Source: Spirulina subsalsa PCC 9445 | GTDB taxonomy: Bacteria > Cyanobacteriota > Cyanobacteriia > Cyanobacteriales > Spirulinaceae | Length of the DNA: 64,000 nucleotides | Assembly (NCBI RefSeq): GCF_000314005.1 | Contig: NZ_JH980292.1 | Location: forward strand, 796,530-860,529 | Reading direction: 5' to 3' | Shown here: positions 6,783 through 49,507 of the stretch, piece by piece | Numbering within the stretch: the first letter of the stretch is position 1 | Layout: every line of letters starts with the position of its first letter | Translations under genes and position numbers: made by a program | The notes under the pieces: generated by a model | What the model saw: only the letters and a program-made list of their open reading frames with translations | Told to the model about the DNA's origin: nothing | Databases searched by the model: none

Positions 6783-6889
6783 GCTGTATTGTCCTTTTGT
6801 AATTTACGGCATTTATTCGGAGAGAATTGGGCTAATTTAGCCTAAGTTTTTCGCCCATTTTGTTATTTTTAAAACATCTCCTGTGATTG

Positions 6890-6990: not shown

Positions 6991-7005
6991 CGAAGAAATT
7001 CCGCC

Positions 7006-8694: not shown

Positions 8695-8768
8695 GAGTTA
8701 ATGCTTTCTACTGTTCTCGTCAATTCACGAACTCCCTCTCAGGAGTCCCCATCAGGACTGGTGTCCTC

Positions 8769-9761
8769 TCAGTGCAGATGTTGCAACGCCGTCAGGGTGT
8801 CTTCATTCACCCCCATTTGTTCCACAAAAGGCTCCAGAAAAGCCCCATTGGAATCATCCCGTTGCACCGCCACCGCTTGGTTTAAATCCGGCACCGTGGC
8901 GATTTGATTCTCTGCTACCCACTGGTTATATTCCTCTTGGGTGTGAACAATCACCTCCGTCCGCATCGCACCGTGATAGGCCCCGCACAACTCCGCACAG
9001 ACGACGGGATAATGTCCCGTTTGAGTCGCCACAAAGCGCAATAGGGTTTTCTCTCCCGGAATGGCATCTTGTTTAATGCGGAACTGGGGCAACCAGAACG
9101 AATGAATCACATCTTGGGCTTCAATACTTAGCTGGACATCTTTCCCCACAGGAACATGGAGTTCCCCCGCTACAATCCCGGTGTCAGGATAGTTAAACAG
9201 CCAAGCGTATTGAATCCCGGTGACATTAACGGTTAAATCTGGGGGTAACTTCCCCTCTACCGGGGTGGCTCCGATGCCATATTCTCGGTTATCTCCTTGA
9301 GCCATCAATAAATTAGCTTCACTGCCGGGTAAACTAGCAATCTCAACAGAATGATGGCTGTGATTGTGGGCAAGGCCAGACCCAATGGCATCAAATCCCC
9401 CCATTTGGCTATAGACATCCACGCTGTAGATGCCTAAACCAATCACAAGAAAAGCCGGAATAGCCGTCCAAAAAATTTCTAGGGGTAAGTTTCCCTCCAC
9501 ATAAGGCGCATCGGTTTCATCCCCCTTTTTGTGCCGAAATTTAATCATGGTGAAGAGAATCGCCCCTTCTACTAATAAAAAGAGGGCTGTCCCAATTGTT
9601 ACCATCACTTGAAAAAAATCATCCACTAAGGGGGCTTGTTCCGAGACTTGTTCCGGTAATAGACCATTATTTTGACCATACCAAAAACTAATCCCGGTGA
9701 CGGCAATCCCCAAGGTTAATGTAATCAGTGAAATGGGAACGGTTTCTTTTTCTTTTGCCAT
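8769..9761 (-). CDS. ctaC: Cytochrome c oxidase subunit II
   Basis: CuA-site motif CAELCGAYHGAM and HSFWLPQF. Two N-terminal TM helices. Upstream of ctaD. Confidence 0.9.
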   Translation of the reverse strand: MAKEKETVPISLITLTLGIAVTGISFWYGQNNGLLPEQVSEQAPLVDDFFQVMVTIGTALFLLVEGAILFTMIKFRHKKGDETDAPYVEGNLPLEIFWTAIPAFLVIGLGIYSVDVYSQMGGFDAIGSGLAHNHSHHSVEIASLPGSEANLLMAQGDNREYGIGATPVEGKLPPDLTVNVTGIQYAWLFNYPDTGIVAGELHVPVGKDVQLSIEAQDVIHSFWLPQFRIKQDAIPGEKTLLRFVATQTGHYPVVCAELCGAYHGAMRTEVIVHTQEEYNQWVAENQIATVPDLNQAVAVQRDDSNGAFLEPFVEQMGVNEDTLTALQHLH

Positions 9762-10220
9762 ATCGTCGTTGACCTCTGGTAATCATCTAATGTAGCCACT
9801 ATTTCCCATGTAAACACTGAGTTAAGGGAAAGTGCGGCAAAATTCTACATTTTTTCATAACTGTTCCCGATAGCCGTTACATCAATCAATCCCCAACCAA
9901 TCAATCTCAAACCGATCAATCTTTGATGGGTTGGTATTTAATGGTTCTGTCAAGGCATTGTAGCGTATCTCCTCGATTTGCAACTTGTCAGGACTCACAA
10001 ATTGCCATGAAATCTCTAAATCTGAATTTTGTATTAAAAAACAACAATAATTCTCGAAAAAATATTATATTTTCTTTAGATTTGCGGCGGGGTGATGGGT
10101 TAAATCAGTGCATCCCAACGGTTCAAACCTGCCAGAATTTTCTGGAATCAAGCCCCGTGGCGTTGGATCTATGCCCAATGGCGATATGACATTCACTCTG
10201 AATCCAAGGGAGACAAGCCG

Positions 10221-12119
10221 ATGCTCGAAGGATGGTTAGATTGGCTGGGAGACAGGAATCCCCAACTGTTCCGGGAACTCAAAGGTCGTTTAAAACCCCG
10301 TAACATCCTGTTGGCCGTGGGGGCTTCCTTGATGGGGCAATTGTTGCTGGTCTTACTGGCATGGCAACGCTTTGAGAACTTCATCCATAACGTTCAACAA
10401 GACTCCGCCTATTGTCAGGCAAGTAGTCCCGCGCTGCATCAACTGATAGACCTGAATCGACAGAATCAAATTTTAACGGAGAAACTGAATCAAGCTTACG
10501 GCATCATGGAGGCAGATCAGGCGACCATCAATGCCTTATCGGCTCAACTGGGGGAAGTCCAAGAGCAAATTCAACAACTGGCGGCTCCTTGTCCTCCTGA
10601 GAGTATTAATACCGTCCTGTGGTGGGTTGATCAGACTCCCAGTTACTTTGCGACGTTAACCCTCATTAGTTTAGTCATCCTGTTGGTGGGGGGGGTTTAT
10701 CTGCTGATTCAAAATCTGGAACAGGAAGAGAAAAAAGGCACCCTCACCTTTCTCCGTTTGTGTCCCCAATCCACGCCGCAATTAATGCTAGGTAAGTTGC
10801 TGGGGGTGCCGATTGTATTGTACTTCGCGCTGGCTTGTGCCTTACCCCTTCATGTTGGGTTAGCCCAACTTTCTGGGATTCCCTTGGGGGTGTTATTGCT
10901 GTTTTATGGGGTGTGTATAGCGGGGTGTGGTTTCTTCCTGACGGGAGGGATCTTAGTGGGTTTATTGACTCAGACCTTGCAGCAGGTGGGGTTCAAGGGG
11001 TTTCAGGCTATTGGTGGGGCTTTTGGGATGGCGATCGCACTGAGTTCTCTGTTCGGTGCCCTAATGGACTACCAACCCGAACCCAGCGCTATGATGATCT
11101 TCCATCTTTTAAATCCCTTTGCTTGGTGTCATGCCTTGATGCCGCAAGCCTTCAGTTTCTTTAATTCAACCTCATCATGGTTCGATCCGACCCTCTCAGG
11201 AGACACCCCCCAAACCTTTTTAAGGATGCTCCATTTTTATCGTCTCCCCATTGGGTCTAATCCGCTCCTGCTAGCCCTCTTTTTGATCGCCAATGCTCTA
11301 TTCTGGAGAAAATGGTTAGGTGGCATGATTGAGCGTTGTTTCCGCAATCCTAACGGCAGTTTATTGAGTAAGCGTCAATGGTATGGCTTGATGCTGTCAT
11401 TTCAGATCATCTTTTTAGGGTTAGTTTTAGTACCGAGAGGGGTTTCTGAGGGGGATTTATACTTAGATGATTTATTTTGGACATTTTTCCTGCTAATCCT
11501 GATCAACACCTTCTTGTTAGTGTGGGCTATTTTAACCCTCACCCCACGACGACAAACCGCCATAGATTGGGCGCGCTATCATCATCAAAAGAGTAACACT
11601 GGGCTAGTGGAGTGGTTAGAAGGAGAAAAAAGTCCGGCATTAGGGGCGATCGCACTTTTACTCCTCATCGCCGCCATCTTCTTCCTCCCTTGGCTGTGGC
11701 TCATGTCTCATCATATCTCCCTCGTCGCTAATCCCAACGTTGCCCCCAAACTCCTAGTCCTCGTCGCAGGGGTTGCCTTTTATGGCTTGTGGCTGCTGAT
11801 TTACGCCAGCATCACCCAACATATTTTTCTCTTCTCCTTCAAACAACCCCATCTTTGGGCATTTGTGGTCAATAGCAGTATTTTCTTCTTCCCTCCCCTG
11901 CTCCTCACCATCTTGGAATCCCAAAACAATTGGTCTGATAATCGGGGGATTTGGCAGTTTTCCTCCTTACCTTGGGTTTACTTAGATTCAGCCAGTCCTT
12001 TAACCCTTGGCTTATCTTTACTGACCCATACCTTAATCGCGGCCGTTTTAGCCCAAGTATCCCTCTCCCGTATCCGTTACCTCGGAAAATCCACCACCCA
12101 AACTCTGTTAAATCGATGA
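10221..12119 (+). CDS. Hypothetical polytopic membrane protein. It has an N-terminal cytoplasmic coiled-coil of about 130 aa and at least 10 predicted TM helices.
   Basis: Hydrophobicity pattern of the translation. No recognisable family. Confidence 0.45.
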   Translation: MLEGWLDWLGDRNPQLFRELKGRLKPRNILLAVGASLMGQLLLVLLAWQRFENFIHNVQQDSAYCQASSPALHQLIDLNRQNQILTEKLNQAYGIMEADQATINALSAQLGEVQEQIQQLAAPCPPESINTVLWWVDQTPSYFATLTLISLVILLVGGVYLLIQNLEQEEKKGTLTFLRLCPQSTPQLMLGKLLGVPIVLYFALACALPLHVGLAQLSGIPLGVLLLFYGVCIAGCGFFLTGGILVGLLTQTLQQVGFKGFQAIGGAFGMAIALSSLFGALMDYQPEPSAMMIFHLLNPFAWCHALMPQAFSFFNSTSSWFDPTLSGDTPQTFLRMLHFYRLPIGSNPLLLALFLIANALFWRKWLGGMIERCFRNPNGSLLSKRQWYGLMLSFQIIFLGLVLVPRGVSEGDLYLDDLFWTFFLLILINTFLLVWAILTLTPRRQTAIDWARYHHQKSNTGLVEWLEGEKSPALGAIALLLLIAAIFFLPWLWLMSHHISLVANPNVAPKLLVLVAGVAFYGLWLLIYASITQHIFLFSFKQPHLWAFVVNSSIFFFPPLLLTILESQNNWSDNRGIWQFSSLPWVYLDSASPLTLGLSLLTHTLIAAVLAQVSLSRIRYLGKSTTQTLLNR

Positions 12120-34775: not shown

Positions 34776-34819
34776 GCGAATGGCTAGGCAACGCTTCGCG
34801 AATGGCTAGGCAACGCTTC
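34776..34819. repeat. Perfect 22-bp tandem duplication (GCGAATGGCTAGGCAACGCTTC x2) spanning the dnaA 5' region
   Basis: Read directly. It creates the upstream in-frame ATG at 34802. Confidence 0.8.
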
Positions 34820-34846
34820 GCGAACGCAGTTCACCCCTTTGGCGAC

Positions 34847-36199
34847 ATGACCCCTGAACAACTCTGGAATCAAGTTTTAATCCGTTTGGAACATCAGTTA
34901 AGTCGTCCAACCTTTGACACTTGGATTAAAAGCATCACCGTACAAGTTTGGCGCGATCGCCTTTTAGTCCTCTGCGCCCCCAATCCCTTTGCTCGCAACT
35001 GGTTACAGAAACACTATCTCGGCATCCTGACCGAAGTCGTCACCGACATTTTAGGTTACGACGTGGAAATCCAACTTACCAGCCACTCCGAAGACGGTCA
35101 AGGCATTGTCTGGCCCGTACAGGATGCACCCCCCGCCGAAAACGAACGCGATCGCCCCTCAGAAGACCACCAACCCCGTCCCACCCCCTTTAACCTCAAA
35201 TATAGCTTTTCCCGCTTTGTCGTCGGTTCTAACAACCGCATGGCCCACGCCGCCTCCTTAGCCGTTGCCGAATCCCCCGGCCGAGAATTTAACCCCCTCT
35301 TCCTCTGTGGAGGAGTTGGTTTAGGCAAAACCCACCTCATGCAGGCCATTGGTCACTATCGCCTTGAAATTAACCCCGACTCCCGCGTATTCTACGTTTC
35401 CACCGAAAAATTCACCAACGACCTCATCACCGCCATTCGTCAGGACAGTATGCAGAGTTTCCGCGACCACTACCGGGCCGCCGATGTTCTGTTAGTCGAT
35501 GACCTGCAATTCATCGAAGGCAAAGAATACACCCAAGAAGAATTTTTTTACACCTTTAACACCCTCCACGAAACTGGAAAACAAGTCGTTTTAGCCGCCG
35601 ACCGTCCCCCCAACCAAATCCCCCGCTTACAAGACCGTCTCTGTTCCCGTTTTTCTATGGGATTAATCGCCGACATTCAACTCCCCGACTTAGAAACCCG
35701 TATGGCCATCCTCCAGAAAAAAGCCGAAGACGAAAAAATGCGCCTCCCTCGGGACATTGTGGAATTTATCGCCACCACCTACACCTCCAACATCCGGGAA
35801 CTCGAAGGCGCCCTCATACGCACCTTAACCTATATATCTATTTCCGGTTTACCCCTGACCGTAGAAAACATTGCCCCCATCCTCAACTCCCCCATCGAAA
35901 AAATCACCGCCTCCCCCAGTGCTATATTGAACGCGATCGCCGAAGTGCTAAACGTCTCCATAGAAGACCTGCGCAGCAACTCCCGACGACGGGAAATCAG
36001 TTGGGCCCGGCAAATCGGAATGTATTTAATGCGTCAATATACCGATTTGAGTCTACCCCGCATTGGGGAAGAATTTGGGGGAAAAGACCATACAACCGTT
36101 CTCTATAGTTGTGAAAAAATTGCCCAACTCAAGCAGAAGGATAGCCAATTGAACGAGATTTTACGCCAAGTGAGCGATCGCATTGCCCTTAAGACTTGA
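34847..36199 (+). CDS. dnaA: Chromosomal replication initiator DnaA
   Basis: [16 protein letters not shown]-terminus, AAA+ Walker [11 protein letters not shown], and a C-terminal DnaA-box-binding domain. The preferred start is 34847, not the 34802 ATG created by the duplication. Confidence 0.9.
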
Positions 36200-36320
36200 T
36201 TTGACCCAACCCAGTTACAAAACTTAACCCTCCAAACCCAGAGAATCAGTCAATCTCTTCCTAACTGACCCTCCGAGTCGCTAAACTGATTGAAGTTATT
36301 TTTTGATTAATCCCGATAGT

Positions 36321-36806
36321 ATGAGCGTCGTTAGCCAAGTTATTCTCAAAGCAGATGATGAACTCCGCTACCCCAGTAGCGGAGAACTAAAAAGCATTGG
36401 TGCCTTCCTAGAAACAGGAGTGCAACGGATGCGCATTGCCGAAACCCTAGCCGAAAACGAGCAGAAAATTGTAGACAAAGCCAGCAAAGAACTCTGGAAA
36501 AAGCGGCCAGACTTCATTGCTCCAGGCGGCAACGCCTACGGCCAACGTCAACGAGCGCTATGTTTACGTGACTATGGATGGTATCTCCGTTTAGTCACCT
36601 ACGGAGTCCTGGCCGGAGACAAAGACCCCATTGAAAAAATCGGTTTAATCGGAGTCCGCGAAATGTACAACGCCCTCAACGTTCCCGTTGTCGGCATGGT
36701 TGAAGCCATTCGCTGCCTCAAAGACGCTTCTTTAGGTCTACTCAGTACCGAAGACGCTCAAGAAGCCGCCCCTTACTTCGACTACATTATTCAGGCGATG
36801 TCCTAA
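36321..36806 (+). CDS. apcD: Allophycocyanin alpha-B subunit
   Basis: [26 protein letters not shown]...[25 protein letters not shown]...[12 protein letters not shown] closely matches ApcD. Confidence 0.8.
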
Positions 36807-37384: not shown

Positions 37385-37858
37385 ATGGAATCGCCAGTTA
37401 AAGCCAAATCCCTTGGATTATACGACAGAGACTATCAACTGTGGTTAGAGCGCACCGTTGCCCAGTTGAAAGCAGAGGATTTTAATAGCCTTGATCTAGA
37501 AAACTTAATTGAGGAGATTGAGAGTTTGGGTAGAAGCGAAAAACGAGCCATTGCTAGCTACCTGATGCGGTTATGCGAACATCTGCTTAAGATAAAATAC
37601 TGGGAATCTGAACAAGAAACCTGTTTTAGAGGGTGGAATCTCGAAGTTACTACTTTTCGTTTCCAGATTCAAGCCATTTTGCAAGATAGCCCTAGTTTGA
37701 AAAACCATCTCCGCGCCAGTTTTTTGGCAGAGTATAACAAAGCTAGAACGCTTTTTATCAAAGCCAGTCAACTCCATGCTAACTTAATCCCCCAAGAGCC
37801 TGAATTTACCCTAGAGCAAGCCTTAGATGAGGATTGGCTACCTTGGCGGCCTCAATAG
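37385..37858 (+). CDS. DUF29-family protein
   Basis: LYDRDYQLWLERTVAQLKAEDFNSLDLENLIEEIESLGRSEKRAIASYLMRLCEHLLK matches the conserved DUF29 N-terminal helices. Confidence 0.6.
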   Translation: MESPVKAKSLGLYDRDYQLWLERTVAQLKAEDFNSLDLENLIEEIESLGRSEKRAIASYLMRLCEHLLKIKYWESEQETCFRGWNLEVTTFRFQIQAILQDSPSLKNHLRASFLAEYNKARTLFIKASQLHANLIPQEPEFTLEQALDEDWLPWRPQ

Positions 37859-37963: not shown

Positions 37964-39094
37964 TTAAGATGATTTTCCCAGCAAGTTATCTTCTTTTATT
38001 TGTATTTTTTGTAACTCCGCGTTAAGTTTCTCTTTAGAAGATTCTATTTCCTTCATGGCATTGTTTCGCGCCGTGTTGATCTGTTCAATTAAACGAGCAT
38101 AGGTACTATTTGAGTCATTTTCAAACTTTTCATAAAGTTTAATTCTTTTTTGTTTAATCTCTACTTGTTGCGACAATTCTCTGTTCTTACTTTGTAAATC
38201 ATTCCGTTGTTTTTGCAATTCCTCGATTCTCTGTTTTAAATTATTTTCAGTGAAATTGAACCATATATAATGACCCGCCATGCTAATTAATAAACCGATT
38301 AAAAATGCGACAATAATCGGTAGCCATTTTTTCAGGGTAGATGTTTCCTGATTTCCTGTACCATTTCTTGAATAAGCCGACGAAGTAGCTGTTGGTAAAA
38401 CAGAAGCAGATGTTGAAGTATTTGTAGATTTGGACGGTTGACGAAAATTATCACCTTTATCCTCCGACAACAGAATCCACTCATCATCAGATATTGTCTC
38501 TGATAAACCGCGCCAAACTTTGTTTTGTTTCAGCTTAGATTCTGATACCGTTGCAGACACCACAACTAACATCCCGTCATATTTAGGCAAAGAATATTGA
38601 TTCAGATCGCGAATGAGGTCATTTTTACAGATGGAGAGATTGCCGATTTTACCAGAGTCAGCCGGATTATTTTGAACAGACATAAGACCAAGATTTTCCG
38701 GTGTTAATTCCTCAAAACTCACCTTAAAGCCTTGAGCGTTATTTTCAGAAACAACCGCTTGATCTACTCGATTGGCTAATTCTCCATTCAAGGCTTGAAT
38801 TGCAATGGCGCGTAAAGTCGCTTCATCCGAATTATTCCCAACCCATAAAACCGAATTAAAAATTTTCCGAGTTCGGTTGTCAATGCGATCTTTTGAGGGT
38901 AATCCTGTTACCAATAGCAAAAGCCTATTTTGTTGATCTTGAGAACGATAAAGAACCACCGAAAAATAATCGCTATCTACCATTTTTAGCATCGGTTCTA
39001 GGTCATCATCAGGTAGATCATAAAGTATTATCTCTGGTTCTTTTAACCAACAATATTCTTTAGAAACTCCGCAACTTTGTACAAACAATTCCAT
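37964..39094 (-). CDS. Single-pass membrane protein: 274-aa cytoplasmic domain, one TM helix, and a C-terminal coiled-coil of about 80 aa. Third gene of the dynamin-like operon (LeoC-like position).
   Basis: TM segment WLPIIVAFLIGLLISMAGHYIWF, followed by heptad-rich KQRIEELQKQRNDLQSKNRELSQQ. AAGGAGA ribosome-binding site 7 nt upstream. Starts 11 bp after the upstream GTPase gene. Confidence 0.5.
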   Translation of the reverse strand: MELFVQSCGVSKEYCWLKEPEIILYDLPDDDLEPMLKMVDSDYFSVVLYRSQDQQNRLLLLVTGLPSKDRIDNRTRKIFNSVLWVGNNSDEATLRAIAIQALNGELANRVDQAVVSENNAQGFKVSFEELTPENLGLMSVQNNPADSGKIGNLSICKNDLIRDLNQYSLPKYDGMLVVVSATVSESKLKQNKVWRGLSETISDDEWILLSEDKGDNFRQPSKSTNTSTSASVLPTATSSAYSRNGTGNQETSTLKKWLPIIVAFLIGLLISMAGHYIWFNFTENNLKQRIEELQKQRNDLQSKNRELSQQVEIKQKRIKLYEKFENDSNSTYARLIEQINTARNNAMKEIESSKEKLNAELQKIQIKEDNLLGKSS

Positions 39095-39105
39095 AGTGAA
39101 TCTCC

Positions 39106-40077
39106 TTACAATTTCAATAGTTCTAGACCTTGGACAATTTCAACCTCGTCGGGTCTTGGTTCTGTAAATCGACTCACGGCATTTCGCAACCCCGAATTTC
39201 TCCCCAGAACATTCCAAATTTTCTTAAAGATAGAAGCCCTTCCGTTATCTAGATGCAGCTTCAACAAAAATCGTAGCAGATACCGTAGGGGAACTTCAGT
39301 ATTTTTGGGTTTATAAAGACTATTAGGTTGAGGTTTCCGATAGAAGAATGTTGGTTCACCATTGTTATCGAATTCAATCCGTGAAAACACGACACCACCT
39401 AAAGTTTGAACCGGAGTAATGATCACTGAAACTTTCGAGACGAGCTTTTCAGATGCAAATTGATTGAGGAGTTTCTGATAGCCTTCTCTGACCTTTCTAA
39501 ATAATTCCGAAGGATCATCCTTGATATATTTTTCACATTTGATGGGAGCCAAAATCACCAAGCGAGGAGAATCCAAGTCCTTATAGACTTTTTTAAATAA
39601 ATCATTTATTTCTGTTGGTTGATTCAATTTATCATGATATTTTCCTTCCCCTTCCATTAATATCGGAGTATCAATGGGAATCAAAACAGCGACCGATTGC
39701 CTGATTAAGTCTTCTACTTTTTTCTGCTGGCTATCCTCTTCCAGCCATCCCCCTGGATAATCCTGAAAATTAATTTGTAAAGCGGGATTTGTTCCAGTTT
39801 GCCCAAACCAAAACTTAAATGAGCGATAACCCTTAGTTTGTGTAAAACTTGGGCGATATTTTATGCTATCACCAACGGTTTTCAGTTCCTGTAACCGCTT
39901 ATTCAAATCAGATTTACTTTCGTCATCCGCCTCTAGTTGTAAATCCTGACTAACATTAGCAAACTGATCATACATGGCGGCCAACAAGCTAGTTTTGCCC
40001 ACACCCCTTGGACCCAGCATCGCTACGTTAAGAGTGGGTAAATTTTCTTCAGAATTAAATGGCCAAAAAGATTTCAT
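39106..40077 (-). CDS. Small P-loop GTPase (LeoB-like position)
   Basis: Walker A/G1 GPRGVGKTSLL, G3-like DYPGG, and no further recognisable domains. Starts 34 bp after the large GTPase gene. Confidence 0.55.
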   Translation of the reverse strand: MKSFWPFNSEENLPTLNVAMLGPRGVGKTSLLAAMYDQFANVSQDLQLEADDESKSDLNKRLQELKTVGDSIKYRPSFTQTKGYRSFKFWFGQTGTNPALQINFQDYPGGWLEEDSQQKKVEDLIRQSVAVLIPIDTPILMEGEGKYHDKLNQPTEINDLFKKVYKDLDSPRLVILAPIKCEKYIKDDPSELFRKVREGYQKLLNQFASEKLVSKVSVIITPVQTLGGVVFSRIEFDNNGEPTFFYRKPQPNSLYKPKNTEVPLRYLLRFLLKLHLDNGRASIFKKIWNVLGRNSGLRNAVSRFTEPRPDEVEIVQGLELLKL

Positions 40078-40111
40078 TGATTACCCTCACAATTTTACTT
40101 TCTTAGGATTT

Positions 40112-42289
40112 TTATAGCTGCTTTAAAGATTGTTCTAACTGCTCAATCTGAGCCGTGACAGAAGTGAGAAGATTTGACCAGTCTTGAACAGCGTTCACTT
40201 GAATTTGCAGTTTTTCAAACTTGTCCCAAATCTGATGTCGTTTGCTGCGTAAGAATCGTTTCCATTCTTTTTTCGCATTTTTAGCTCGCAGTACACGGTC
40301 AGCAAATTCTTCAACAATAGCAAAAGATGCTTGGCTGGGTTCTGACAAAAATCCAGTTAAAGCCCCTTCACAGTTATAAATAGTTGACTTGTATTCTTCC
40401 TCTAGAGAGTCTAAAATATCTTGAGCCTTAGCTCCTAATTTAGGCCGTGACGTTAAATCTGGGGTTAACCCATTTAACTGTGAACGAATACGGTGTTGAA
40501 TTAAGCCTCGATACGACAGATTAAATTCTGACAAAATCTCAAACCCTTTTTTAAGTTCGGTGTATTCTGGCACGGGCGGAATTTGATTAGCCACTTCAAC
40601 TAAAAACTGTGATTGTCGGGATTCTGAGAGTCCGCCCAAACCGCATTTTTCTACCAAAACGTCAGCTACTGTCGCTTTAATTTGCTCAATTGTTTTAGTC
40701 AATCCTTGCTCAATATCCAGAAATTTTCGGGATAAATTGGTTCTCAACTCTTGCAAATATTGATCATAAGTGCTGGCATAAGATTCTAGTTTGTTGCGGC
40801 GTCTTTCTATGTCTTTCAAACTTGGCATTTGCACATTTTTCCGACAATCGTCTAAAACTGTATCAATCTGATTTTTAAGGTTCTCATCCGGGTCGTCACG
40901 ATTCTGCATTAATTGCTTTTGAAACTCCGTCATTTCATTAGTAATTGTATCCCAAAATTCTTCAAATAAATCTTCATATTGATTAGAAATTTCATCATCA
41001 TCAATATTGGGTAATGCAATCTTAACTAGCTGTAATTGCTGGTTAAAATCCCTGAGACTAGCCTGCAAATCTGCTATTTTTTTCTGGGTATAATTGCGAT
41101 CTAATTCGGTCACATTAGAACTTAAATTACTCAAAACAGACTGAAGCACTTTAGTATTAGCATCGTCAGGGGAAGAACAGTCCGCAATGACACAATCTAG
41201 GACGGGCATTCTCACCTTACCTGAATTAATATCCTGTTGTAAAGACAGACAACTGGCTTGATTTTCCCCATTTTGATCGACATTAAGGACAAAGATAGAG
41301 CGAGAAGGCAAATCATTTAACGCTTTATTCGCTAAATCATAAAGTTTTGTATCACTTTGCTCAAAATTTGCCCGGTCTTTGGAGGGTTTGCGAATAAATA
41401 GAATAAAATCGACTTCTTGGGCAAGAGCTTCAATCACTAAACTCTCATCTCCTAACCGGAAATCGCCCAAACCCGGAACATCTACTAAGGCAATTGCACC
41501 AATTTCATGAACGGGAAAATCACAGGATATTTTAACGTGCTTAACGGCTAAACACTCATGGTTAATTAGTTCATAATCTTGATTATATTTTTGTGCCACA
41601 TAATTAGAGATTTGAGAGGGATCTTGAATGGTTAAATACCCTCGACCTAAATAGTCTTTGTACTTTTTCCCGTTGCTGTAATAATCATCTTTTAGTCGAT
41701 TATAAATGTTAATTTTTGTTTGATCTCTGTCCGAGGGTAGAGGTGGAATATCACTATGAACAAAGTCTTCAAAAGAACTGGGTTGGGGAGTCAGTCCTAG
41801 TTTTGTGTAATAGGGAATAATCACTTCCTCTAAAAATGAGTCGTGATCATGAAATTGAATTTCTGCGGTGGTAAAATTCCCCGGTTGATGACAAATGGTA
41901 CTCCGCGCTGCGGTACAAGCTTTTCCTTGTAGGGCTGGAATTACCTCGTTTTTTAGTCCAGTTAAACTTTGTAATAGGGTGCTTTTCCCTTGTCCCATGC
42001 GCCCAATTACGCCGATATTTAGGGTTGTACGGGAAAATCTGGCTTGGAGTCTATGAAGTGATCCTAGTTGTTCTTGGACTTTTTGCTTAAAACTTGCAAA
42101 TTCTAGCTGTTGCAGTTTGGATTCGGTGGGTTCATCTCCTGACCAATGCTGAAGTTGGCGATCGCGTTCTTGTTCTAATCGCTGGATCCAACCATACAGT
42201 GAAGATAACCCAGTTTCGATCTCTACCAGCTTTTCAGCAAGGGGCTGACGTTGGGCGATAATGCCCCGGATTTCTTGGCTTCTATTCAT
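40112..42289 (-). CDS. Large dynamin-like GTPase (BDLP/LeoA-like), 726 aa from the ATG at 42289
   Basis: N-terminal coiled-coil, G1 GRMGQGKSTLL, G3 DVPGLGD, then about 450 aa of helical stalk-like sequence. The 76 codons upstream in the track ORF overlap the cyclase gene and look non-coding. Confidence 0.6.
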   Translation of the reverse strand: MNRSQEIRGIIAQRQPLAEKLVEIETGLSSLYGWIQRLEQERDRQLQHWSGDEPTESKLQQLEFASFKQKVQEQLGSLHRLQARFSRTTLNIGVIGRMGQGKSTLLQSLTGLKNEVIPALQGKACTAARSTICHQPGNFTTAEIQFHDHDSFLEEVIIPYYTKLGLTPQPSSFEDFVHSDIPPLPSDRDQTKINIYNRLKDDYYSNGKKYKDYLGRGYLTIQDPSQISNYVAQKYNQDYELINHECLAVKHVKISCDFPVHEIGAIALVDVPGLGDFRLGDESLVIEALAQEVDFILFIRKPSKDRANFEQSDTKLYDLANKALNDLPSRSIFVLNVDQNGENQASCLSLQQDINSGKVRMPVLDCVIADCSSPDDANTKVLQSVLSNLSSNVTELDRNYTQKKIADLQASLRDFNQQLQLVKIALPNIDDDEISNQYEDLFEEFWDTITNEMTEFQKQLMQNRDDPDENLKNQIDTVLDDCRKNVQMPSLKDIERRRNKLESYASTYDQYLQELRTNLSRKFLDIEQGLTKTIEQIKATVADVLVEKCGLGGLSESRQSQFLVEVANQIPPVPEYTELKKGFEILSEFNLSYRGLIQHRIRSQLNGLTPDLTSRPKLGAKAQDILDSLEEEYKSTIYNCEGALTGFLSEPSQASFAIVEEFADRVLRAKNAKKEWKRFLRSKRHQIWDKFEKLQIQVNAVQDWSNLLTSVTAQIEQLEQSLKQL

Positions 42290-42443
42290 TCCAATGTACC
42301 TATGATATTGAATATTAAACCTAACCTTGAGGTTACACCAGAAAATATAAATAGGGTATTCAAACTTGGATTTCTTAATGAAATTTAAATGGACATTCAG
42401 CCATAATTTAGTTATAATTCGCCCCCAACGCGCTCTTTTCTCC

Positions 42444-43850
42444 CTATTTATTCCCCAGCAAAAAATATGTTTCCATCTCCCCTTTCCCTTTAACCTCAAC
42501 CTTCCCCCGCCGTTCAAAATTATACAGTCCTTGTAACCGTTGATAGGTTGCTTCTGTCACCTGAATTTTCCCCACCACCCCATGAGATTCCATACGACTG
42601 GCCACATTCACCGCGTCTCCCCATAAATCATAAATAAACTTTTTCTTCCCAATTACTCCCGCTACTACATTTCCTGTATTAATGCCAATTCGCATTTCAA
42701 GAGGGCCGTGGGAACAATCAATCTGATGTAGGGATTTCTGCATCGCTAAGGCCATTTCTGCAATGGCTTCCGCGTGATCTGGGCGGGGTGTGGGTAAACC
42801 CCCTACCACCATATAACTATCCCCAATGGTTTTGATTTTTTCTAGATTATAAAACTCGGTTAAATTGTCAAAACAGGAAAAAATACGATTCAGTAACTCG
42901 ACTAACTCCTCTGGGGGAATTTGACTAGAAAGTTGAGTAAAACCCACAATATCCGCAAATAAAATAGTTACTTCTTCAAATTCTTGAGCAATAATTTTAT
43001 TGCCCTGCTTTAACAAAGTCGCAATAGATTGTGGTAAAATGTTAAGCAAGAGTTGCTCAGATTTTTCCTGTTCAAGGCGAATTAATTCTTGGGCTTGTTT
43101 GCGTTGTTCAATTTCTTGAGAAACGCGCTTAAACATTTGATTAAATGCCTTCATAACTACGCCTAACTCGTCTTTACGCTGAGTGGTTAAGGCATAAAAA
43201 TATACAGAATTCTTGTCCTGATTTCCATTGCGACTTAAGATTTCTCCCGCGACGACGAGATCATCCCGTAACTGTAAAATGGGTGTAATGACAGTCACTC
43301 CCACAATAATTATGGTGGTGACGGTGACGACCAGGGCAATAATGACCACTAAACCAATAATTCGTAGAATGAAAAAATTTAACTCTCGTTGGACTCCTGA
43401 AGCATCTAAACGGGCGATTAAAATATAGTTAATGTTTAAAGATTGAGCCGACCAAGCAATATCATAGCGGTTTCGGTCTGGACTGCGTTGGCGAAGAATG
43501 GCTTTTCCTTGTAAGTCTTGGGGAGTTAATTGGGGAGACTCGCCAATAATTTCAATGGTTTGATGATTTTGGGTATAAATAGCCATGCCCAGAGTGACTG
43601 AAGAATCAGCGATTAAGCTCCGTATTTTGTCCTGTAATTCTTCGGTAGACATATCCATTTCACTTAAGGCCGCAATGAGGGTAACGGTGGCCTGAGAAAT
43701 ATTTTCGAGGTTATTTAATTGACGCTGTTCTTCTTTACGGTAGGAGGGAATTAAGATAATGGCTTCAATGATAACAAGGCTCAGAAAAACCCAAAAGGCA
43801 ATAGAGCGCGATAAACGGGCTTGACAAAGGCGAAAAGAATGAAACCACAT
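42444..43850 (-). CDS. Membrane-anchored class III adenylate/guanylate cyclase (two TM helices, periplasmic sensor domain, HAMP, cyclase domain)
   Basis: Cyclase motifs FADIVGFT, GDSYMVVGG and INTGNVVAGVIG. Confidence 0.8.
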   Translation of the reverse strand: MWFHSFRLCQARLSRSIAFWVFLSLVIIEAIILIPSYRKEEQRQLNNLENISQATVTLIAALSEMDMSTEELQDKIRSLIADSSVTLGMAIYTQNHQTIEIIGESPQLTPQDLQGKAILRQRSPDRNRYDIAWSAQSLNINYILIARLDASGVQRELNFFILRIIGLVVIIALVVTVTTIIIVGVTVITPILQLRDDLVVAGEILSRNGNQDKNSVYFYALTTQRKDELGVVMKAFNQMFKRVSQEIEQRKQAQELIRLEQEKSEQLLLNILPQSIATLLKQGNKIIAQEFEEVTILFADIVGFTQLSSQIPPEELVELLNRIFSCFDNLTEFYNLEKIKTIGDSYMVVGGLPTPRPDHAEAIAEMALAMQKSLHQIDCSHGPLEMRIGINTGNVVAGVIGKKKFIYDLWGDAVNVASRMESHGVVGKIQVTEATYQRLQGLYNFERRGKVEVKGKGEMETYFLLGNK

Positions 43851-44006
43851 TGGGGAATTACGGCAAATTAAGGGGTCATCAAGGATTGTTTTTTACCTGA
43901 TTCTATACCTCAAGAATCGGGAAAGAAAACGGAAATTCATCACCTCATGACACACCATGAGATCCTAAACCATTGCAATGCACCGCTATTTTTAAGGGAA
44001 ATTGGC

Positions 44007-47000
44007 TTATTTTTCTTCATCCATAATGGCACTCCGGTCTAAAATCAGCAAACTGCGCAGTTGATCGGTGTCCATTTCAGTTAACCATTGTTCTCCAGCA
44101 TCTACGGTTTGTTCGGCCAGTTGTTTTTTGCTTTCGATGATGTCGTTGATTTTCTCTTCGAGTGTGCCAGTACAGACAAACTTATGAACTTGAACGTTGC
44201 GTTTTTGACCGATGCGGAAAGCGCGGTCTGTGGCCTGATTTTCAACGGCAGGATTCCACCATCGGTCAACGTGGAAAACATGATTAGCGCGGGTAAGGTT
44301 TAATCCGGTGCCTCCTGCTTTGAGGGAGAGGATGAGGATTTGGGGGCCGTCGGGGTCGTTTTGAAAGCGGTCTACCATGATTTCCCGTTGTTCCCGTTTG
44401 GTGGAGCCGTAGAGGAACAGGACATCGGTATTGAGTTTATATTCTAGGTAGGGTTGTAGGAGTTTCCCCCATTCCGCAAACTGGGTGAAAATTAAAGCGC
44501 GATCGCCTTCTGCCATCACTTCCTCTAACATTTCCTGAAGACGTAAGACTTTCCCGGAACGATCTCCCCGTCCTAAACTCTTCTCTTTCAGCAACAGGGA
44601 GGGGTGATTACAGACTTGTTTCAGCTTCAATAACAGGGTGAGGATTAATCCATGTCGTTGGATGCCTTCTGCTTCCTCAATGGCCATCAGAGACTCGTCT
44701 ACTAGCTTTTGATATAACATCCCTTGTTCTGAGGACAGACCACAGAAAACGTTCATTTCCTGCTTATCCGGCAAGTCTTGGATAATGGCCTTGTCCGTTT
44801 TGAGGCGACGGAGGATGAAGGGTTGGACGAGAGAGCGTAAACTAGAGAGGGAATCGCGATCGCCATATTTCTCAATGGGAATGGCAAAACGATGTTGAAA
44901 GAACTGTTTTGTCCCCAAAAACCCCGGATTCAAAAACTCTAAAATCGACCACAACTCCGTTAAGCGGTTTTCCACTGGAGTTCCCGTTAAAGCAATCCGG
45001 AAATTCGCCGACAAACTCCGCACCGCTTGGGACTGTTTCGCTTGAGAGTTTTTGATATTCTGCGCTTCATCTAAAATCACCCCTTCCCATTGCAGCGTTT
45101 CCAGAGTTTCAATGTCCCGATACACTAACGAGTAACTGGTAATCACTAACTCTTTCTTCTGTGCCGCTTTGACAAAAGTTTTGCCCTTATCTCGTTTATC
45201 CCCATGATGAACCAACACCGATAAAGTCGGGGCAAATTTCCGTAACTCCCGTTCCCAGTTACCTAAAACCGAAGTCGGGCAGACTAATAACGTAGGATTT
45301 TTTAAGCGGTCGTCCTCTTTTAAACTGAGTAAAAAAGCAATAGTTTCAATCGTTTTTCCTAACCCCATATCATCGGCTAAACAAGCGCCCAATCCCCAAC
45401 GTTCTAAGAACCTTAACCATCCCACCCCTCGCGCTTGATAGGGGCGCAATTCTCCCTTAAACCCTGCCGGAGGAGCAGGAGATTCAATCCGTTTATTTTC
45501 TGTTAAATTGGCAATTAATTCTTTGAGTACCCCGGAAGCTTCAAACTTGACCACAGGTAACTTTTCTAAAACCTTTGTATCCCCTGTACTTAAGCGCAAA
45601 GCATCCTCAACCGTAAACGTTAACTCTTCATTTTTTGAGGATAAAATACTTTGAGCCGCCTTGACATCCGCCGGTTGTAAAGCCAACCATTCCCCATTCA
45701 CTTGGACTAGGGGGGATTTTTGCTCTAATAAACGCTCGAATTCTTCCGCCGAAACCGTTTGATCTCCGATAGCTAATTCTAACTTATATTTGAGTAAACT
45801 TTGTAACCCTAAACGATCCGCCTGTTTAGGACTGACCGCCGCCGAGAACTTAATCCCTAAGCGTTTTTCGTCCGCCCCTCCTGCCAGTCCGGGGGGTAAA
45901 TCTACCGTAAAACCCGTATCTTGTAATTGCCAATAACTTGACCGTAAAAAGGCATAAACCTGAATCGGATCTAAAACGCAACGAGTCGGATAAGGATGGA
46001 GTAAACTCTCTCGAATGGGTTCATAAATCCGGGCGGCAATTCCTAATCCTCTTAAGAGAATTTCTTGGGGGTTTTCAATCGTATACCCTTCTAGGTTTAA
46101 TTCCTCAACAGGATTTTCCCAAATGGTCGCCGCCTCTACCACAAAAGAGGGGTCATTCACCGAATGTAAATAATAATTTAATTTCCAGTCTAACTTGCCC
46201 CAATTAATTTCTCCCGTCGTGGGCGCTTGCAGAACAAAAGAGGTGCGAAAGGCATTCCCGGCCAACTTTTCATCTTTCGCGGTGACTAAATAATCTTGCA
46301 CCGGGGCTTTCCAACTGTCTAAAGCAGTTTTTAAGCGGTGCAAGGTTTCGGGAGATTCCCGGAGGGCTGTTAAAGGTTGAGCGAGGGATTCTAACCAAGC
46401 CGTGGCAATGACATCTGAAGAATGTTGACCTTTTAACTCCACCCATTGACGCAATTGACTGTCTACCATTGTGCCTAAAAAGGCAAACAAGAGAGTTTGA
46501 GGGGCAATCCAATCATCCCCCCAAGTGGGTTTTTCCCAACGTTCCTCCGGGTGGACATAAGCCCGACAAACCGAGGGCATCCACTCTAAAAAACGACTTA
46601 AACGACTTTGATCTAAGGCACTATCTAACAAAGGTTGCCATTGACTGTAAGCCTGATTATTATTATCAAACGTTAGGGCAGGTAAAAACTTCCCTCGGGC
46701 TAATAAATCCAAACTCCAGCGATACACTTGCGCCCAAAATTTGAGGGAGTCGCCTAAATAGACTTGTCGCAGTTGGATAGAACCGAGGGGAACCGATTGT
46801 AACAAGAGAATGGCGATCGCCGGATCCAACCGCAAACCCGGAAGCGCCCACCACTGAAGGGATAGGGACGAAATATCTCGAATCTCCTCACTATCCCCCG
46901 ACAGCACCGGAAAGACATCATCCCCCCCCGAATCAGCCCCCTTTTTCCCCCGCTTTTTCCGTTGTCCGCCCCGACTGGGTAAAGCCACCACCTGATAGGT

Positions 47001-47213
47001 CATCCAGTCGGCTCCATCCCCTTCTGGGAGAACTAATTTCCGGGATCTTGCACATTTGAGCACCTCTTCCCCACTCATCGCCAAGGGATGACTCGCCACC
47101 CCCTTCACCCCGGCTTTTAACTCCCCATCTCCCTGAGTCCGCCAAGTTTCTCCCCAGAGGAAAAAATACCCACTCTGGGCTTCTAAAATCCAACTGCCGT
47201 GTAAAATCGCCAT
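44007..47213 (-). CDS. SNF2-family helicase with a long N-terminal bacterial SNF2-associated region
   Basis: Motif I LADDMGLGKT, motif II DEAQNIKN, and the helicase C-terminal domain (LIFTQF...GGTGLNLTRANHV...QATDRAFRIGQ). Confidence 0.85.
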   Translation of the reverse strand: MAILHGSWILEAQSGYFFLWGETWRTQGDGELKAGVKGVASHPLAMSGEEVLKCARSRKLVLPEGDGADWMTYQVVALPSRGGQRKKRGKKGADSGGDDVFPVLSGDSEEIRDISSLSLQWWALPGLRLDPAIAILLLQSVPLGSIQLRQVYLGDSLKFWAQVYRWSLDLLARGKFLPALTFDNNNQAYSQWQPLLDSALDQSRLSRFLEWMPSVCRAYVHPEERWEKPTWGDDWIAPQTLLFAFLGTMVDSQLRQWVELKGQHSSDVIATAWLESLAQPLTALRESPETLHRLKTALDSWKAPVQDYLVTAKDEKLAGNAFRTSFVLQAPTTGEINWGKLDWKLNYYLHSVNDPSFVVEAATIWENPVEELNLEGYTIENPQEILLRGLGIAARIYEPIRESLLHPYPTRCVLDPIQVYAFLRSSYWQLQDTGFTVDLPPGLAGGADEKRLGIKFSAAVSPKQADRLGLQSLLKYKLELAIGDQTVSAEEFERLLEQKSPLVQVNGEWLALQPADVKAAQSILSSKNEELTFTVEDALRLSTGDTKVLEKLPVVKFEASGVLKELIANLTENKRIESPAPPAGFKGELRPYQARGVGWLRFLERWGLGACLADDMGLGKTIETIAFLLSLKEDDRLKNPTLLVCPTSVLGNWERELRKFAPTLSVLVHHGDKRDKGKTFVKAAQKKELVITSYSLVYRDIETLETLQWEGVILDEAQNIKNSQAKQSQAVRSLSANFRIALTGTPVENRLTELWSILEFLNPGFLGTKQFFQHRFAIPIEKYGDRDSLSSLRSLVQPFILRRLKTDKAIIQDLPDKQEMNVFCGLSSEQGMLYQKLVDESLMAIEEAEGIQRHGLILTLLLKLKQVCNHPSLLLKEKSLGRGDRSGKVLRLQEMLEEVMAEGDRALIFTQFAEWGKLLQPYLEYKLNTDVLFLYGSTKREQREIMVDRFQNDPDGPQILILSLKAGGTGLNLTRANHVFHVDRWWNPAVENQATDRAFRIGQKRNVQVHKFVCTGTLEEKINDIIESKKQLAEQTVDAGEQWLTEMDTDQLRSLLILDRSAIMDEEK

Positions 47214-47359
47214 GTTATCTGTGGTTAATGATCCGGGTAATAGGTTATGGGACTGTAGGCGGAGAAACCTTCCGAATTTCAGCGTTTCCCCAAGAGTCTA
47301 GAAGTGCTAGGATTGCGAAAGAAGAAGAAGAAGTCAAACAGAAAGGATAAGCACACAAG

Positions 47360-49507
47360 ATGCAAGAATTCAATAAGTCAATATCCTTTGACGGCCGGGA
47401 TATTCGACTGCAAACTGGTCTACTCGCTCCGCAGGCTGGTGGTTCGGTCTTAATCGAGTCAGGAGAAACTGCCGTAATCGTCACGGCAACACGCTCCACA
47501 GGCCGAGAAGGAATTGATTTTTTACCCCTCTTAGTGGACTACGAAGAACGACTCTACGCAGCAGGCCGCATTCCGGGGGGATTTCTCCGACGAGAAGGCC
47601 GTCCGCCAGAAAAGGTGACACTGACCTGTCGTTTAATCGACCGCCCCTTACGCCCTCTCTTTCCCCAGTGGTTGCGCGATGATATTCAAATCATAGCAAC
47701 TACCCTGTCGATGGATGAACAAGTCCCCCCAGATGTCCTAGCGGTGACAGGTGCATCCGTCGCTGTCCTGTTGGCACAAATCCCCTTTTATGGCCCGATG
47801 GCAGCCGTGCGAGTGGGCTTAGTTGGGGATGATTTTATCATTAACCCGACTTTTAAAGAAATTAAAGAAGGGGATCTTGATTTAGTCGTGGCCGGATCTC
47901 CTGATGGGGTGGTCATGGTGGAAGCTGGAGCGAACCAACTCCCAGAACAAGATATTATTGAGGCCATCGAATTTGGCTATGAAGCGGTTCAAGATTTAAT
48001 TCAAGAACAACGGGATCTCTTAGCCGAATTAGGCTTATCAATTGCGACCGAAGAACCCCCAGAGGTCGATGAAACCTTAACCCACTTTTTAGCCGAAAAA
48101 GCCAGCGTCTCGATTAAAAAAGTCCTCTCTCAATTCGACTTAGATAAAAATGCCCGGGATGAGGCCTTAGATGACATTAAAGCCACCGAAATTGATGCGG
48201 TTTTAACGGAATTACCCGAAGAAGACCCCCTCAAAGTGGCGGCCTCTGAACCGATGGTCGTTGCCGATGCCTTCAAAAAACTGACCAAGAAGTTAATGCG
48301 TCAGCAAATTGTTGAAGACGGCGTGCGGGTGGATGGTCGCAAACTCGATGAAGTGCGTCCCATCTCTTGTCGGGTGGGAGTCTTGCCGCGTCGTGTTCAC
48401 GGTTCTGGCCTGTTCCAACGGGGTTTAACTCAAGTTCTCTCCCTCGTCACCCTCGGCACTCCGGGAGATGCCCAGGAGTTGGATGATTTGCACCCCGACG
48501 AGCAGAAGCGCTATCTCCATCACTACAATTTCCCCCCCTTCTCCGTGGGCGAAACGCGACCCATGCGTTCTCCCGGCCGTCGAGAAATCGGTCACGGGGC
48601 GCTGGCGGAACGGGCGATTGTTCCGGTTCTCCCCCCCCAGACGGAGTTTCCCTATGTGGTGCGGGTGGTGTCTGAGGTCTTGTCGTCTAACGGGTCTACC
48701 TCGATGGGGTCGGTCTGTGGCTCTACCCTCGCCCTGATGGATGCTGGGGTCCCCATTGTTAAGCCTGTGAGTGGGACGGCAATGGGTTTGATTAAGGAAG
48801 GGGACGAAGTGCGGGTCTTGACGGATATTCAAGGCATTGAGGACTTCTTAGGGGATATGGATTTTAAGGTGGCGGGTACCGATAGCGGGATTACGGCCTT
48901 ACAGATGGATATGAAAATCACCGGGTTATCTTTAGATGTGATTGCTCAAGCGGTGAATCAGGCCAAAGAGGGGCGCTTACACATTTTAGAGGAAATGCTG
49001 GCGACTATTGACCAACCCCGTGAGGATCTTTCCCCCTATGCTCCTCGTCTGTTGACGCTGAAGATTGACCCGGATTTAATTGGTTTGGTTATTGGACCGG
49101 GTGGGAAAAATATCAAGGGCATTACGGAGCAAACCGGGGCCAAAATTGATATTGAGGATGATGGCACGGTCACGATTTATTGTCATGAACGGGACAATGC
49201 TCTGAAGGCGCAACGGATTATTGAGGGCATGACGCGCAAACTCAATGAGGGGGATGTATTTGTGGGGTGTGTGACTCGCATTATTCCCATCGGGGCGTTT
49301 GTGGAGATTCTGCCCGGTAAGGAGGGCATGATTCATATTTCCCAACTGGCGGAACGTCGAGTCGGTAAGGTGGAAGATGAGGTCGCTGTAGGCGATGAGG
49401 TTGTGGTGAAGGTGCGGGAAATTGATCAGCGCGGCCGGATTAATCTCACTCGTTTAGGGATTCATCCTGAGGAGGCGGCGGCGGCTCATGAGGCGGCTAG
49501 TCGTTAG
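47360..49507 (+). CDS. pnp: Polynucleotide phosphorylase
   Basis: Two RNase PH domains, a KH domain ([10 protein letters not shown]) and an S1 domain. 715 aa. Confidence 0.95.

Follow-up and report, generated by a model that had tools for sequence, protein, structure and literature searches.

Dynamin-like proteins of bacteria are usually portrayed as working in pairs, homotypic or heterotypic, and their in vivo roles are mostly obscure. The LeoABC operon encodes one dynamin-like protein in two pieces and another in full: LeoC, of 206 residues, has the P-loop, switch I and a transmembrane segment and corresponds to the N-terminal half of the split dynamin G domain, LeoB supplies the remainder of that protein, and LeoA is the unsplit one (PMC4159319). 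Eleos systems consist of two dynamin-like proteins, one of which is sometimes split, and have defence-system neighbours in about 60% of cases; the same study cites a delay of lysis by DynA (10.1101/2022.05.11.491447). The excerpts of Kaur, Burroughs, Iyer and Aravind (2020, PMC7159879) on which we draw describe DO-GTPase systems composed of a DO-GTPase, GAP1 and either GASH or FNIII, and present them as conflict systems in which a constant GTPase core is combined with variable, often membrane-associated components carrying extracellular domains; these excerpts name cyanobacteria for vWA-MoxR systems and none for the GTPase-centric ones. Here we describe a gene trio, g1-g2-g3, on the minus strand of a 64,000-nucleotide stretch of Spirulina subsalsa PCC 9445 (contig NZ_JH980292.1 of assembly GCF_000314005.1, positions 796,530 to 860,529), hereafter called the window, in which it spans positions 37964-42289. 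It is a strongly conserved three-gene module that we found undescribed, as a literature search retrieved no paper describing it, and it is not a member of Eleos. Judged from their sequences, its products appear to combine a known family, the dynamins, with the recently defined DO-GTPase2-like family and with a new family represented by the N-terminal domain of g3.

The three genes are co-directional and tightly packed. The first, g1 (40112..42289, minus strand), encodes a putative dynamin-superfamily large GTPase of 725 residues with an N-terminal helix, a G domain and a helical C-terminal region of about 390 residues. The second, g2 (39106..40077, minus strand), encodes a predicted stand-alone P-loop GTPase of the TRAFAC class, 323 residues long, which is DO-GTPase2-like and has a conserved C-terminal extension. 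The third, g3 (37964..39094, minus strand), encodes 376 residues organized as an N-domain, a linker, a transmembrane helix and a coiled-coil tail. All three genes start with ATG; g1 and g2 are separated by 34 bp, g2 and g3 by 11 bp, and Shine-Dalgarno-like sites precede g2 (GAGG) and g3 (AAGGAG). The coordinates and gaps given for the three packed minus-strand genes in the initial annotation were reproduced, and the motifs that it had listed, GRMGQGKS(T), DVPGLGD, GPRGVGKT(SLL) and DYPG(G), are all present on translation. Its sizes of 323 and 376 residues hold, while the 726 residues attributed to g1 become 725 when counted from the ATG. Ahead of this ATG the frame of g1 stays open for another 76 codons, as far as a TTG at 42517, and overlaps the 3' end of the cyclase gene (42444-43850). 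We rejected this longer reading and take the ATG at 42289 as the real start, since g1 homologues are 721-732 residues long and an independent gene call in another assembly of the same organism also gives 725. This gene call reproduces all three products, and database proteins identical to the trio members are recorded from Spirulina subsalsa.

In order to follow the trio beyond the window, relatives were collected by a pattern scan combined with tblastn using the g2 alignment, over genomes representing 185,579 species. We found 115 relatives and examined the best 80 of them. Searches of these loci with the window proteins (phmmer) recovered g1, g2 and g3 in this order and on one strand in all 73 complete loci; loci without the full trio were cut by contig ends. 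The median gaps are 18 and 12 bp. The distance matrices of the three proteins correlate pairwise (r = 0.74-0.84), and g3 diverges fastest, with a mean distance of 0.64 against 0.42-0.46 for the two GTPases. The trio is inherited as a unit whose members diverge in step, in an arrangement far beyond chance. No further gene is conserved near it, the next clusters of open reading frames (ORFs), found in 16 of the 80 loci, being Uma2 endonucleases. Co-inheritance of the trio and variability of its neighbourhood, which the initial annotation proposed to check in related genomes, are both borne out.

The carriers belong to Oscillatoriales-type, Nostocales, Pleurocapsales, Chroococcidiopsidales, Spirulinales and Leptolyngbya-like lineages, with a few unicellular forms; most are filamentous or colonial. 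A genome holds one to three copies, and several genomes hold two or three from different clades. In 48 of 62 loci the trio is poorer in GC than the sequence around it (p = 1e-6). All of the loci are cyanobacterial save one (L077, OZ241351.1), a metagenome-assembled genome (MAG) labelled Candidatus Binatia in which g1 lies in three fragments; either the trio has moved into another phylum there, or the genome carries a wrong label or was mis-binned. In a Laspinema/Oscillatoria sub-clade, a gap of about 1 kb between g1 and g2 holds an extra gene (L048, L054, L055, L056 and L058, at about 6090-6640 of each locus; L052, 6067-6717). It is an AAA_33 P-loop kinase-like gene in L048, L055 and L056 and a Coq4-like gene in L052, while L054 and L058 have an ORF of similar size at that position. 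We considered these ORFs as a fourth component of the trio and rejected the idea, as they are unrelated insertions, either AAA_33 kinase-like or Coq4. Their presence implies that g1 and g2 need not be translationally coupled.

The G domain of g1 matches the Pfam family Dynamin_N over residues 92-336 (36 bits, cut-off 27). It also matches the PADLOC profile LeoBC (E 4.9e-10), with the G-domain part only, at positions 29-191 of the 601 of the profile. The initial assignment of this protein to the dynamin superfamily is borne out by both matches. With a family profile built from 28 members, the best solved relative is the mitofusin Fzo1 (E 1.6e-3), ahead of IRG, Drp1 and Mx; the alignment with Fzo1 covers the helix that precedes the G domain, G1 and a switch I of the mitofusin/BDLP type with the pattern P...CT (BDLP, bacterial dynamin-like protein). 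Residue conservation in g1 and g2 was scored across 60 trios. In the G1 motif or P-loop, GRMGQGKS (residues 96-103; 41981..42004, minus strand), G96, Q100, G101, K102 and S103 are invariant. P118, C125 and T126 of the mitofusin/BDLP-like switch I (41912..41938, minus strand) are 100% conserved, as are D270, P272, G273, L274 and G275 of the G3 or switch II motif DVPGLGD (residues 270-276; 41462..41482, minus strand). The C-terminal region of about 390 residues shows only weak Pfam matches to helical repeats (Apolipoprotein, spectrin-like) at residues 377-566. No transmembrane-like, paddle-like or hydrophobic segment was detected in g1, the maximum hydropathy over 19 residues being 1.09, although an amphipathic membrane-binding surface could conceivably be present. 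By its sequence, g1 is a divergent GTPase of the dynamin superfamily in which the catalytic motifs are intact and a membrane anchor is lacking.

Two kinds of unusual g1 homologue were seen. A 1155-residue protein of Symploca sp. SIO2G7 (P0283) carries an N-terminal STAND-like ATPase (AAA_35/AAA_16, residues 10-267) ahead of its dynamin G domain. The join may be a real fusion or a gene-call merger, and hints at a link to conflict-type NTPases. In addition, g1 is split or interrupted into at least two ORFs in 10 of 77 loci (L011, L016, L030, L056, L061, L067, L072, L076, L077 and L078), and in L072 an insertion of about 1.2 kb inside g1 contains reverse-strand ORFs. Such splits could mean that dispensable copies are decaying, or could stem from frameshift errors in assemblies from long reads or of MAGs.

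For g2, the initial reading as a P-loop GTPase is upheld by an invariant P-loop and by a match, marginal yet above the Pfam cut-off, to PF19993, DO-GTPase2 (30.1 bits, cut-off 27, residues 18-205); PF19993 is also found in the precomputed annotation of most g2 homologues. The nucleotide-binding core is complete in one chain, with GxxGxGKT, D-Y-P-G, an invariant E142 and an invariant C-E-K-Y. In the P-loop GPRGVGKT (residues 22-29; 39991..40014, minus strand), G22, G25, G27 and K28 are invariant, and in the Walker B/G3 motif D-Y-P-G (residues 106-109; 39751..39762, minus strand) D106 and G109 are 100% conserved. The C-terminal extension of about 100 residues contains a near-invariant helix, PLRYLLRFLLKLH (residues 263-275; 39253..39291, minus strand), conserved at 82-100% per position, which is a candidate partner-binding or membrane-binding element. 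We rejected the possibility that g2 is a split-off dynamin G domain, since an hhalign comparison of g1 with g2 aligned 24 columns of the P-loop only. Against solved structures, the g2 profile likewise gave P-loop-only matches, to Rab and FtsY. The sequence of its N-terminus shows no Cys clusters. We read g2 as a complete stand-alone TRAFAC GTPase of a non-dynamin, DO-GTPase2-like family.

The sole integral membrane component of the trio is g3. Its cytoplasmic part had been described as a 274-residue domain; we found instead a folded domain of about 211 residues followed by a disordered linker of about 45 residues. The N-domain (residues 1-211; 38462..39094, minus strand) has no match among Pfam, NCBIfam or PADLOC families and no solved structure was found by sequence, in line with the earlier statement that the domain was unrecognised. 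It thus forms a family new in sequence, with a predicted two-lobed alpha/beta fold. The low-complexity linker (residues 212-256; 38327..38461, minus strand), with a predicted local distance difference test score (pLDDT) below 50 at 212-257, varies in length and aligns poorly. The single transmembrane helix already noted initially, WLPIIVAFLIGLLISMAGHYIWF (residues 257-279; 38258..38326, minus strand), has a Kyte-Doolittle hydropathy of 2.07, and the tail that follows it (residues 280-376 and stop; 37964..38257, minus strand), a putative coiled coil, is one long helix in the model.

The AlphaFold2 model of residues 1-211, calculated with 45 homologues, is confident (pLDDT 86.9, predicted template modelling score 0.87). 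Its first lobe has the strand and helix order of a longin domain, b-b-a-b-b-b-a-a (DSSP: E2-7, E16-24, H30-38, E45-50, E57-71, E77-87, H88-102, H105-113), and a second predicted alpha/beta lobe follows. Foldseek placed TagF at the top (E 3.6e-3, probability 0.82), then FNIP2, FLCN, GATOR1 and DENND10, at low TM-scores of about 0.3. A literature search brought up no publication linking TagF to DENN or longin domains, and none is relied on here. Two independent structure-search methods agree that longin/DENN-type GTPase regulators and TagF are nearest to this model. We regard the longin/DENN likeness of the N-domain as a lead at the level of the fold, homology not being established. Four arginines, R70, R76, R95 and R195, are invariant in g3.

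The architecture of g3 combines a constant inner part with a variable end. A single transmembrane segment lies at residue 187-278 (mostly 213-266) in 74 of 76 homologues, and many homologues stop right after it, being tail-anchored proteins of 256-262 residues. An exhaustive HMMER search with the N-domain only, against 1.84 billion representatives, gave 466 clusters, 334 of them at E <= 1e-10. In almost all 466 the domain is N-terminal in a protein of 230-520 residues in total, and exactly one transmembrane segment was found in 107 of 142 new representatives of the family. The part beyond the membrane depends on the lineage: a coiled coil in the clade of the window, nothing in many others, one to five He_PIG Ig-like repeats in Okeania, Lyngbya and Dapis (L060, 7997-10225; L022; L041), and WD40 blades in Aliinostoc, Moorena and Scytonema (L018, 7973-9184; L064, 8000-9223; L044, 8000-9214). 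The WD40-type homologues have about three blades only, too few for a closed propeller, which suggests oligomerisation. Since g3 has no signal peptide and its folded domain begins at residue 1, the N-domain would be cytoplasmic and the variable part outside. This layout is that of a putative transmembrane sensor or anchor.

The sole architectural outlier of the g3-domain family is a phage protein. P0332 is a tail tape measure protein of 3177 residues, matching many PHROG tape-measure families (best E 3.4e-34), encoded at 2075-11608 of a 52-kb metagenome contig (L081). Its residues 428-625 (about 3353-3946 of the contig) form a g3-type domain (profile E 1.4e-41) that is 39% identical to the g3 of the window, whose own clade provides its best matches. 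The domain keeps DNRTRKI, E91/R95, P170/G174 and W-R-G. After it come a Lys-rich linker and, at residue 756, a transmembrane segment, mirroring the domain-linker-transmembrane order of g3. The contig also encodes DnaB, an RNA ligase and many orphan ORFs; the nearest relative of its DnaB belongs to Planktothrix phage PaV-LD (58.5% identity, E 1e-140). Neither g1 nor g2 was found in the 21.6 of 52 kb examined. Without the g3-type domain, P0332 gives only short matches to mycobacteriophage tape measure proteins among known phages, and a metagenome scan with the phage domain returned no match. A cyanophage thus appears to have copied the domain-linker-transmembrane layout of g3, as a decoy or in order to hijack the machine, hinting that the trio acts at the membrane during phage attack.

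A second Spirulina genome shows the same site occupied by another cassette. The SNF2 and PNPase genes of S. subsalsa CS-330 (L036) and their counterparts in the window are orthologues (63% and 84% identical in protein, 70-75% in nucleotide sequence). The CS-330 trio lies beside SNF2 in the opposite orientation, with no cyclase gene between, and is only 37/44/26% identical to the trio of the window (compared stretches: L036 4735-14730 and window 37964-49507; the left flanks are unrelated). The trios of Planktothrix, Limnoraphis and Limnospira are closer to that of the window, at 70-76% identity, so that the two Spirulina cassettes are non-orthologous. Presumably they were acquired independently, or a cassette was replaced at this one site.

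The module has a GC content of 0.383, against 0.468 in the rest of the window. The gene order is PAS histidine kinase, DnaA, ApcD-type phycobilisome protein, small membrane protein, DUF29 and the trio, and beyond g1 a class III nucleotide cyclase, an SNF2/DUF3670 helicase and PNPase; the neighbours initially named, apcD, adenylate cyclase, SNF2 helicase and pnp, were thus recovered. The DUF29 gene (window 37385-37858) is directly downstream of g3. Since dnaA is immediately upstream of the apcD-type gene (window 34802-36806), the trio is about 2 kb from dnaA. The region had been called rich in mobile repeats, whereas beside the module we found only short, chance-level repeats. A discrete mobile element was considered and rejected: boundary repeats are absent, and promoter and terminator motifs match no more often than chance predicts. 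A structured RNA in or around the module was likewise rejected, as Rfam gave no match at E <= 1, including in the region 42290-42400. That region, 5' of g1 on the minus strand, aligns as a conserved non-coding leader or promoter candidate with the upstream regions of L003 (Phormidium pseudopriestleyi) and L006/L007 (uncultured cyanobacterium), which belong to genera other than that of the window. Across window, L003 and L006/L007, 73 of 127 alignment columns are invariant, the g1 proteins being about 70% identical; the conservation was not found in L002, L004 or L005. These roughly 100 nucleotides are probably a promoter or 5' leader travelling with the cassette.

The two nearest genes on each side of the 80 loci, 277 genes in all, were compared with Pfam and PADLOC. 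The only recurrent nearest neighbour is Uma2/PDC-S03 (14-18 of 144 genes), a PADLOC candidate that adjoins the trio for example in L003 (9291-9821) and L009 (12338-12940). The Uma2 family is very abundant in cyanobacteria, and both DUF29 and Uma2 are multi-copy cyanobacterial families. Otherwise the nearest neighbours comprise two DNA methylases and housekeeping genes that are specific to particular lineages (S41 peptidase/PDZ, dienelactone hydrolase, ABC ATPases); the second-nearest genes gave scattered generic matches only. Guilt by association does not support a defence role.

Taken together, these data are best accommodated by a membrane-anchored GTPase machine encoded in one operon, with g3 as anchor, g2 as switch and g1 as effector, a scheme to which we give even or marginally better than even chances. 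In such a machine, g3 would anchor the system and possibly sense events outside the cytoplasm. Its longin/DENN-like cytoplasmic domain would bind g2 and set its nucleotide state, as longin-domain guanine nucleotide exchange factors (GEFs) or GTPase-activating proteins (GAPs) do. The invariant arginines R70, R76, R95 and R195 may provide a catalytic finger, for which the longin-domain arginine fingers of NPRL2 and FLCN are an established precedent. Gene adjacency and co-variation with g2 are what support a putative role of g3 as a GEF or GAP that binds and regulates g2. GTP-bound g2 would then recruit or release g1, which would assemble on the cytoplasmic face of the membrane and spend GTP to remodel, seal or constrict it. 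The scheme suggests that a dynamin is recruited by a GTPase switch, which to our knowledge has not been reported for bacterial dynamins.

What this machine would serve is a more tentative matter. We lean, somewhat short of even odds, towards a guard that protects the cell membrane when phages inject their genomes or the envelope is damaged. This reading draws on the patchiness of the trio, its occurrence in several copies, the replaced cassette, the variability of the part of g3 that lies outside, the domain copied by a phage and the one g1 homologue fused to a STAND-like ATPase. The trio behaves as an accessory module, as judged from its one to three copies per genome, the non-orthologous CS-330 trio and the disruption of g1 in 10 of 77 loci. 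A number of observations weigh against a guard role. All named matches come from cyanobacteria, an unusual range for mobile defence. Over the 277 flanking genes of the 80 loci, the flanks do not form defence islands, and PADLOC, one of the checks proposed at the outset, assigns the trio to no system and recognises no defence system at the locus. The tape-measure fusion is a single contig: a tblastn search found none in 50,697 INPHARED records, and four pattern scans of limited sensitivity found no g3-type domain in IMG/VR. A phage could equally exploit a housekeeping machine. Concerning the two putative GTPases themselves, neither g1 nor g2 has a canonical NKxD G4 motif, and the DO-GTPase2 score of g2 is marginal.

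The strongest competitor, possible though somewhat less probable than a guard against phages, is a housekeeping or stress machine for remodelling or repair of the thylakoid or plasma membrane, or for cell or filament division. Paralogous copies would then serve different membranes or conditions, and the tape-measure domain would hijack host membrane remodelling for DNA entry. Restriction of the family to cyanobacteria, which have two internal membrane systems, fits this idea, as do the mostly housekeeping character of the flanking genes, the stable synteny within sub-clades and the absence of a defence-island signal; published views also tie cyanobacterial dynamin-like proteins to thylakoid dynamics (PMC5827413). 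It is less easily reconciled with the patchy distribution, 115 relatives among genomes representing 185,579 species at one to three copies each, with the non-orthologous cassettes at one site in two Spirulina genomes and with the disrupted g1 genes. Moreover, standard model strains are not among the best family matches, and the swappable part of g3 beyond the membrane (Ig-like, WD40 or coiled coil) and the fastest evolution of g3 are more typical of conflict systems.

A fuller version of the guard against phages, which we consider unlikely as a whole, would see in the operon a eukaryote-like trafficking logic, with a small GTPase, an anchored longin/DENN-type regulator and a dynamin effector: the variable outer domain would detect phage contact or injection, the dynamin would seal or remodel the membrane, and the tape-measure decoy would counter it. 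Still more doubtful is an abortive-infection system in which g3 senses invasion, g2 is a thresholding switch and g1 a toxic effector that breaks membrane integrity, so as to kill the infected cell instead of protecting it. Such a system would account for the match of g2 to DO-GTPase2, a family defined in predicted conflict systems in the excerpted parts of PMC7159879. It would also suit the constant-inside, variable-outside layout of g3, the STAND-like ATPase joined to one g1 homologue, and the mostly filamentous or colonial carriers, which resemble those of DO-GTPase systems. On the other hand, PMC7159879 does not mention dynamin as an effector, the trio has no GAP1, GASH or FNIII component and no Zn ribbons, and the characterised dynamin-like proteins that we know of protect or remodel membranes rather than lyse them. 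Membership of Eleos (LeoA/LeoBC), towards which the initial likeness to LeoA-LeoB-LeoC pointed, is very improbable and we rejected it on composition: the match of the g1 G domain to LeoBC and the LeoC-like anchoring of one component by a transmembrane segment are outweighed by the restriction of that match to 29-191 of 601 profile positions, by the lack of a LeoA match (best E 0.025, P-loop only), by the presence of a single dynamin-like protein beside g2, a different and complete GTPase with Walker A and Walker B in one chain, and g3, which has no GTPase, stalk or other dynamin fragment, and by flanks that, unlike those of about 60% of Eleos systems, do not adjoin defence systems.

How then does the membrane-anchored trio compare with known systems? 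With Eleos/LeoABC, as in enterotoxigenic Escherichia coli (ETEC) H10407 and in the two-gene system of Bacillus vietnamensis, it shares a dynamin-superfamily GTPase, a compact operon and a component anchored by a single transmembrane segment. Eleos defence requires the P-loops, and those of the trio are intact. Unlike Eleos, the trio contains one dynamin-like protein, a non-dynamin small GTPase and a putative non-GTPase sensor or anchor.

DO-GTPase-GAP1 systems resemble the trio in other respects: DO-GTPase2 scores above the Pfam cut-off, albeit marginally, the GTPase core is constant, and the partner has a C-terminal transmembrane segment. Their partner carries variable extracellular Ig-like domains, to which the He_PIG repeats of some g3 homologues are analogous, and their carriers are mostly multicellular bacteria, as are those of the trio. 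In contrast, the trio has one DO-type GTPase only, where those systems often have two paralogous GTPases, and a dynamin-like protein as its constant third part. GAP1 gave no match at E <= 5 in the g3 of the window and is absent from the 25 Pfam families, out of 180, that are matched by most of 45 g3 homologues; no GASH or FNIII gene is conserved near the trio. A canonical DO-GTPase-GAP1 system was rejected on the absence of GAP1, GASH, FNIII and Zn ribbons.

Tandem bacterial dynamin-like proteins (Nostoc BDLP1/2, Bacillus subtilis DynA, which is reported to be phage-protective, Campylobacter DLP1/2 and IniA/IniC) share with g1 the G-domain family and the P...CT switch I, and probably also a helical stalk and an action on membranes. 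They act in homotypic or heterotypic dynamin pairs and bring their own paddle or transmembrane segment, whereas g1 shows no hydrophobic stretch and has as its partners a small GTPase and a distinct anchor protein. Jilly et al. (2018, PMC5827413) reported dynamin-like proteins of Lyngbya aestuarii BL J and Phormidium sp. OSCR as unclassified 'cBDLPs' with a 'hypothetical protein' downstream. Both genomes carry the trio, and these cBDLPs are probably members of the g1 family, their locus tags being unmatched to our loci. The 'HSR1 clade' of the same study (PMC5827413) was also considered and is not equated with the trio family, as its member genomes differ. What sets the trio apart is that, across most cyanobacterial orders, its dynamin is firmly tied to a small GTPase and to a membrane anchor or sensor, each a protein of its own.

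Two leads offered by the module stand out, the g3-type domain of the phage tape measure protein and the longin-like fold. The first opens phage-host conflict at the membrane to experiment in bloom-formers such as Planktothrix, Limnospira/Arthrospira and Limnoraphis. As for the fold, TagF and the pairs formed by a small GTPase and a longin, roadblock or DENN regulator (MglA-MglB, Rag-Ragulator, FLCN-FNIP, GATOR1 NPRL2/3, Mon1-Ccz1) are the top structural neighbours of the g3 N-domain model. Like such regulators, g3 is encoded beside a small GTPase and its modelled N-domain has the longin order of strands and helices followed by a second alpha/beta lobe. If this longin/DENN-like fold is real, the trio would be a second bacterial platform of small GTPase and longin domain beside MglA-MglB, here coupled to a dynamin, and would bear on the origin of the membrane-trafficking modules of eukaryotes.

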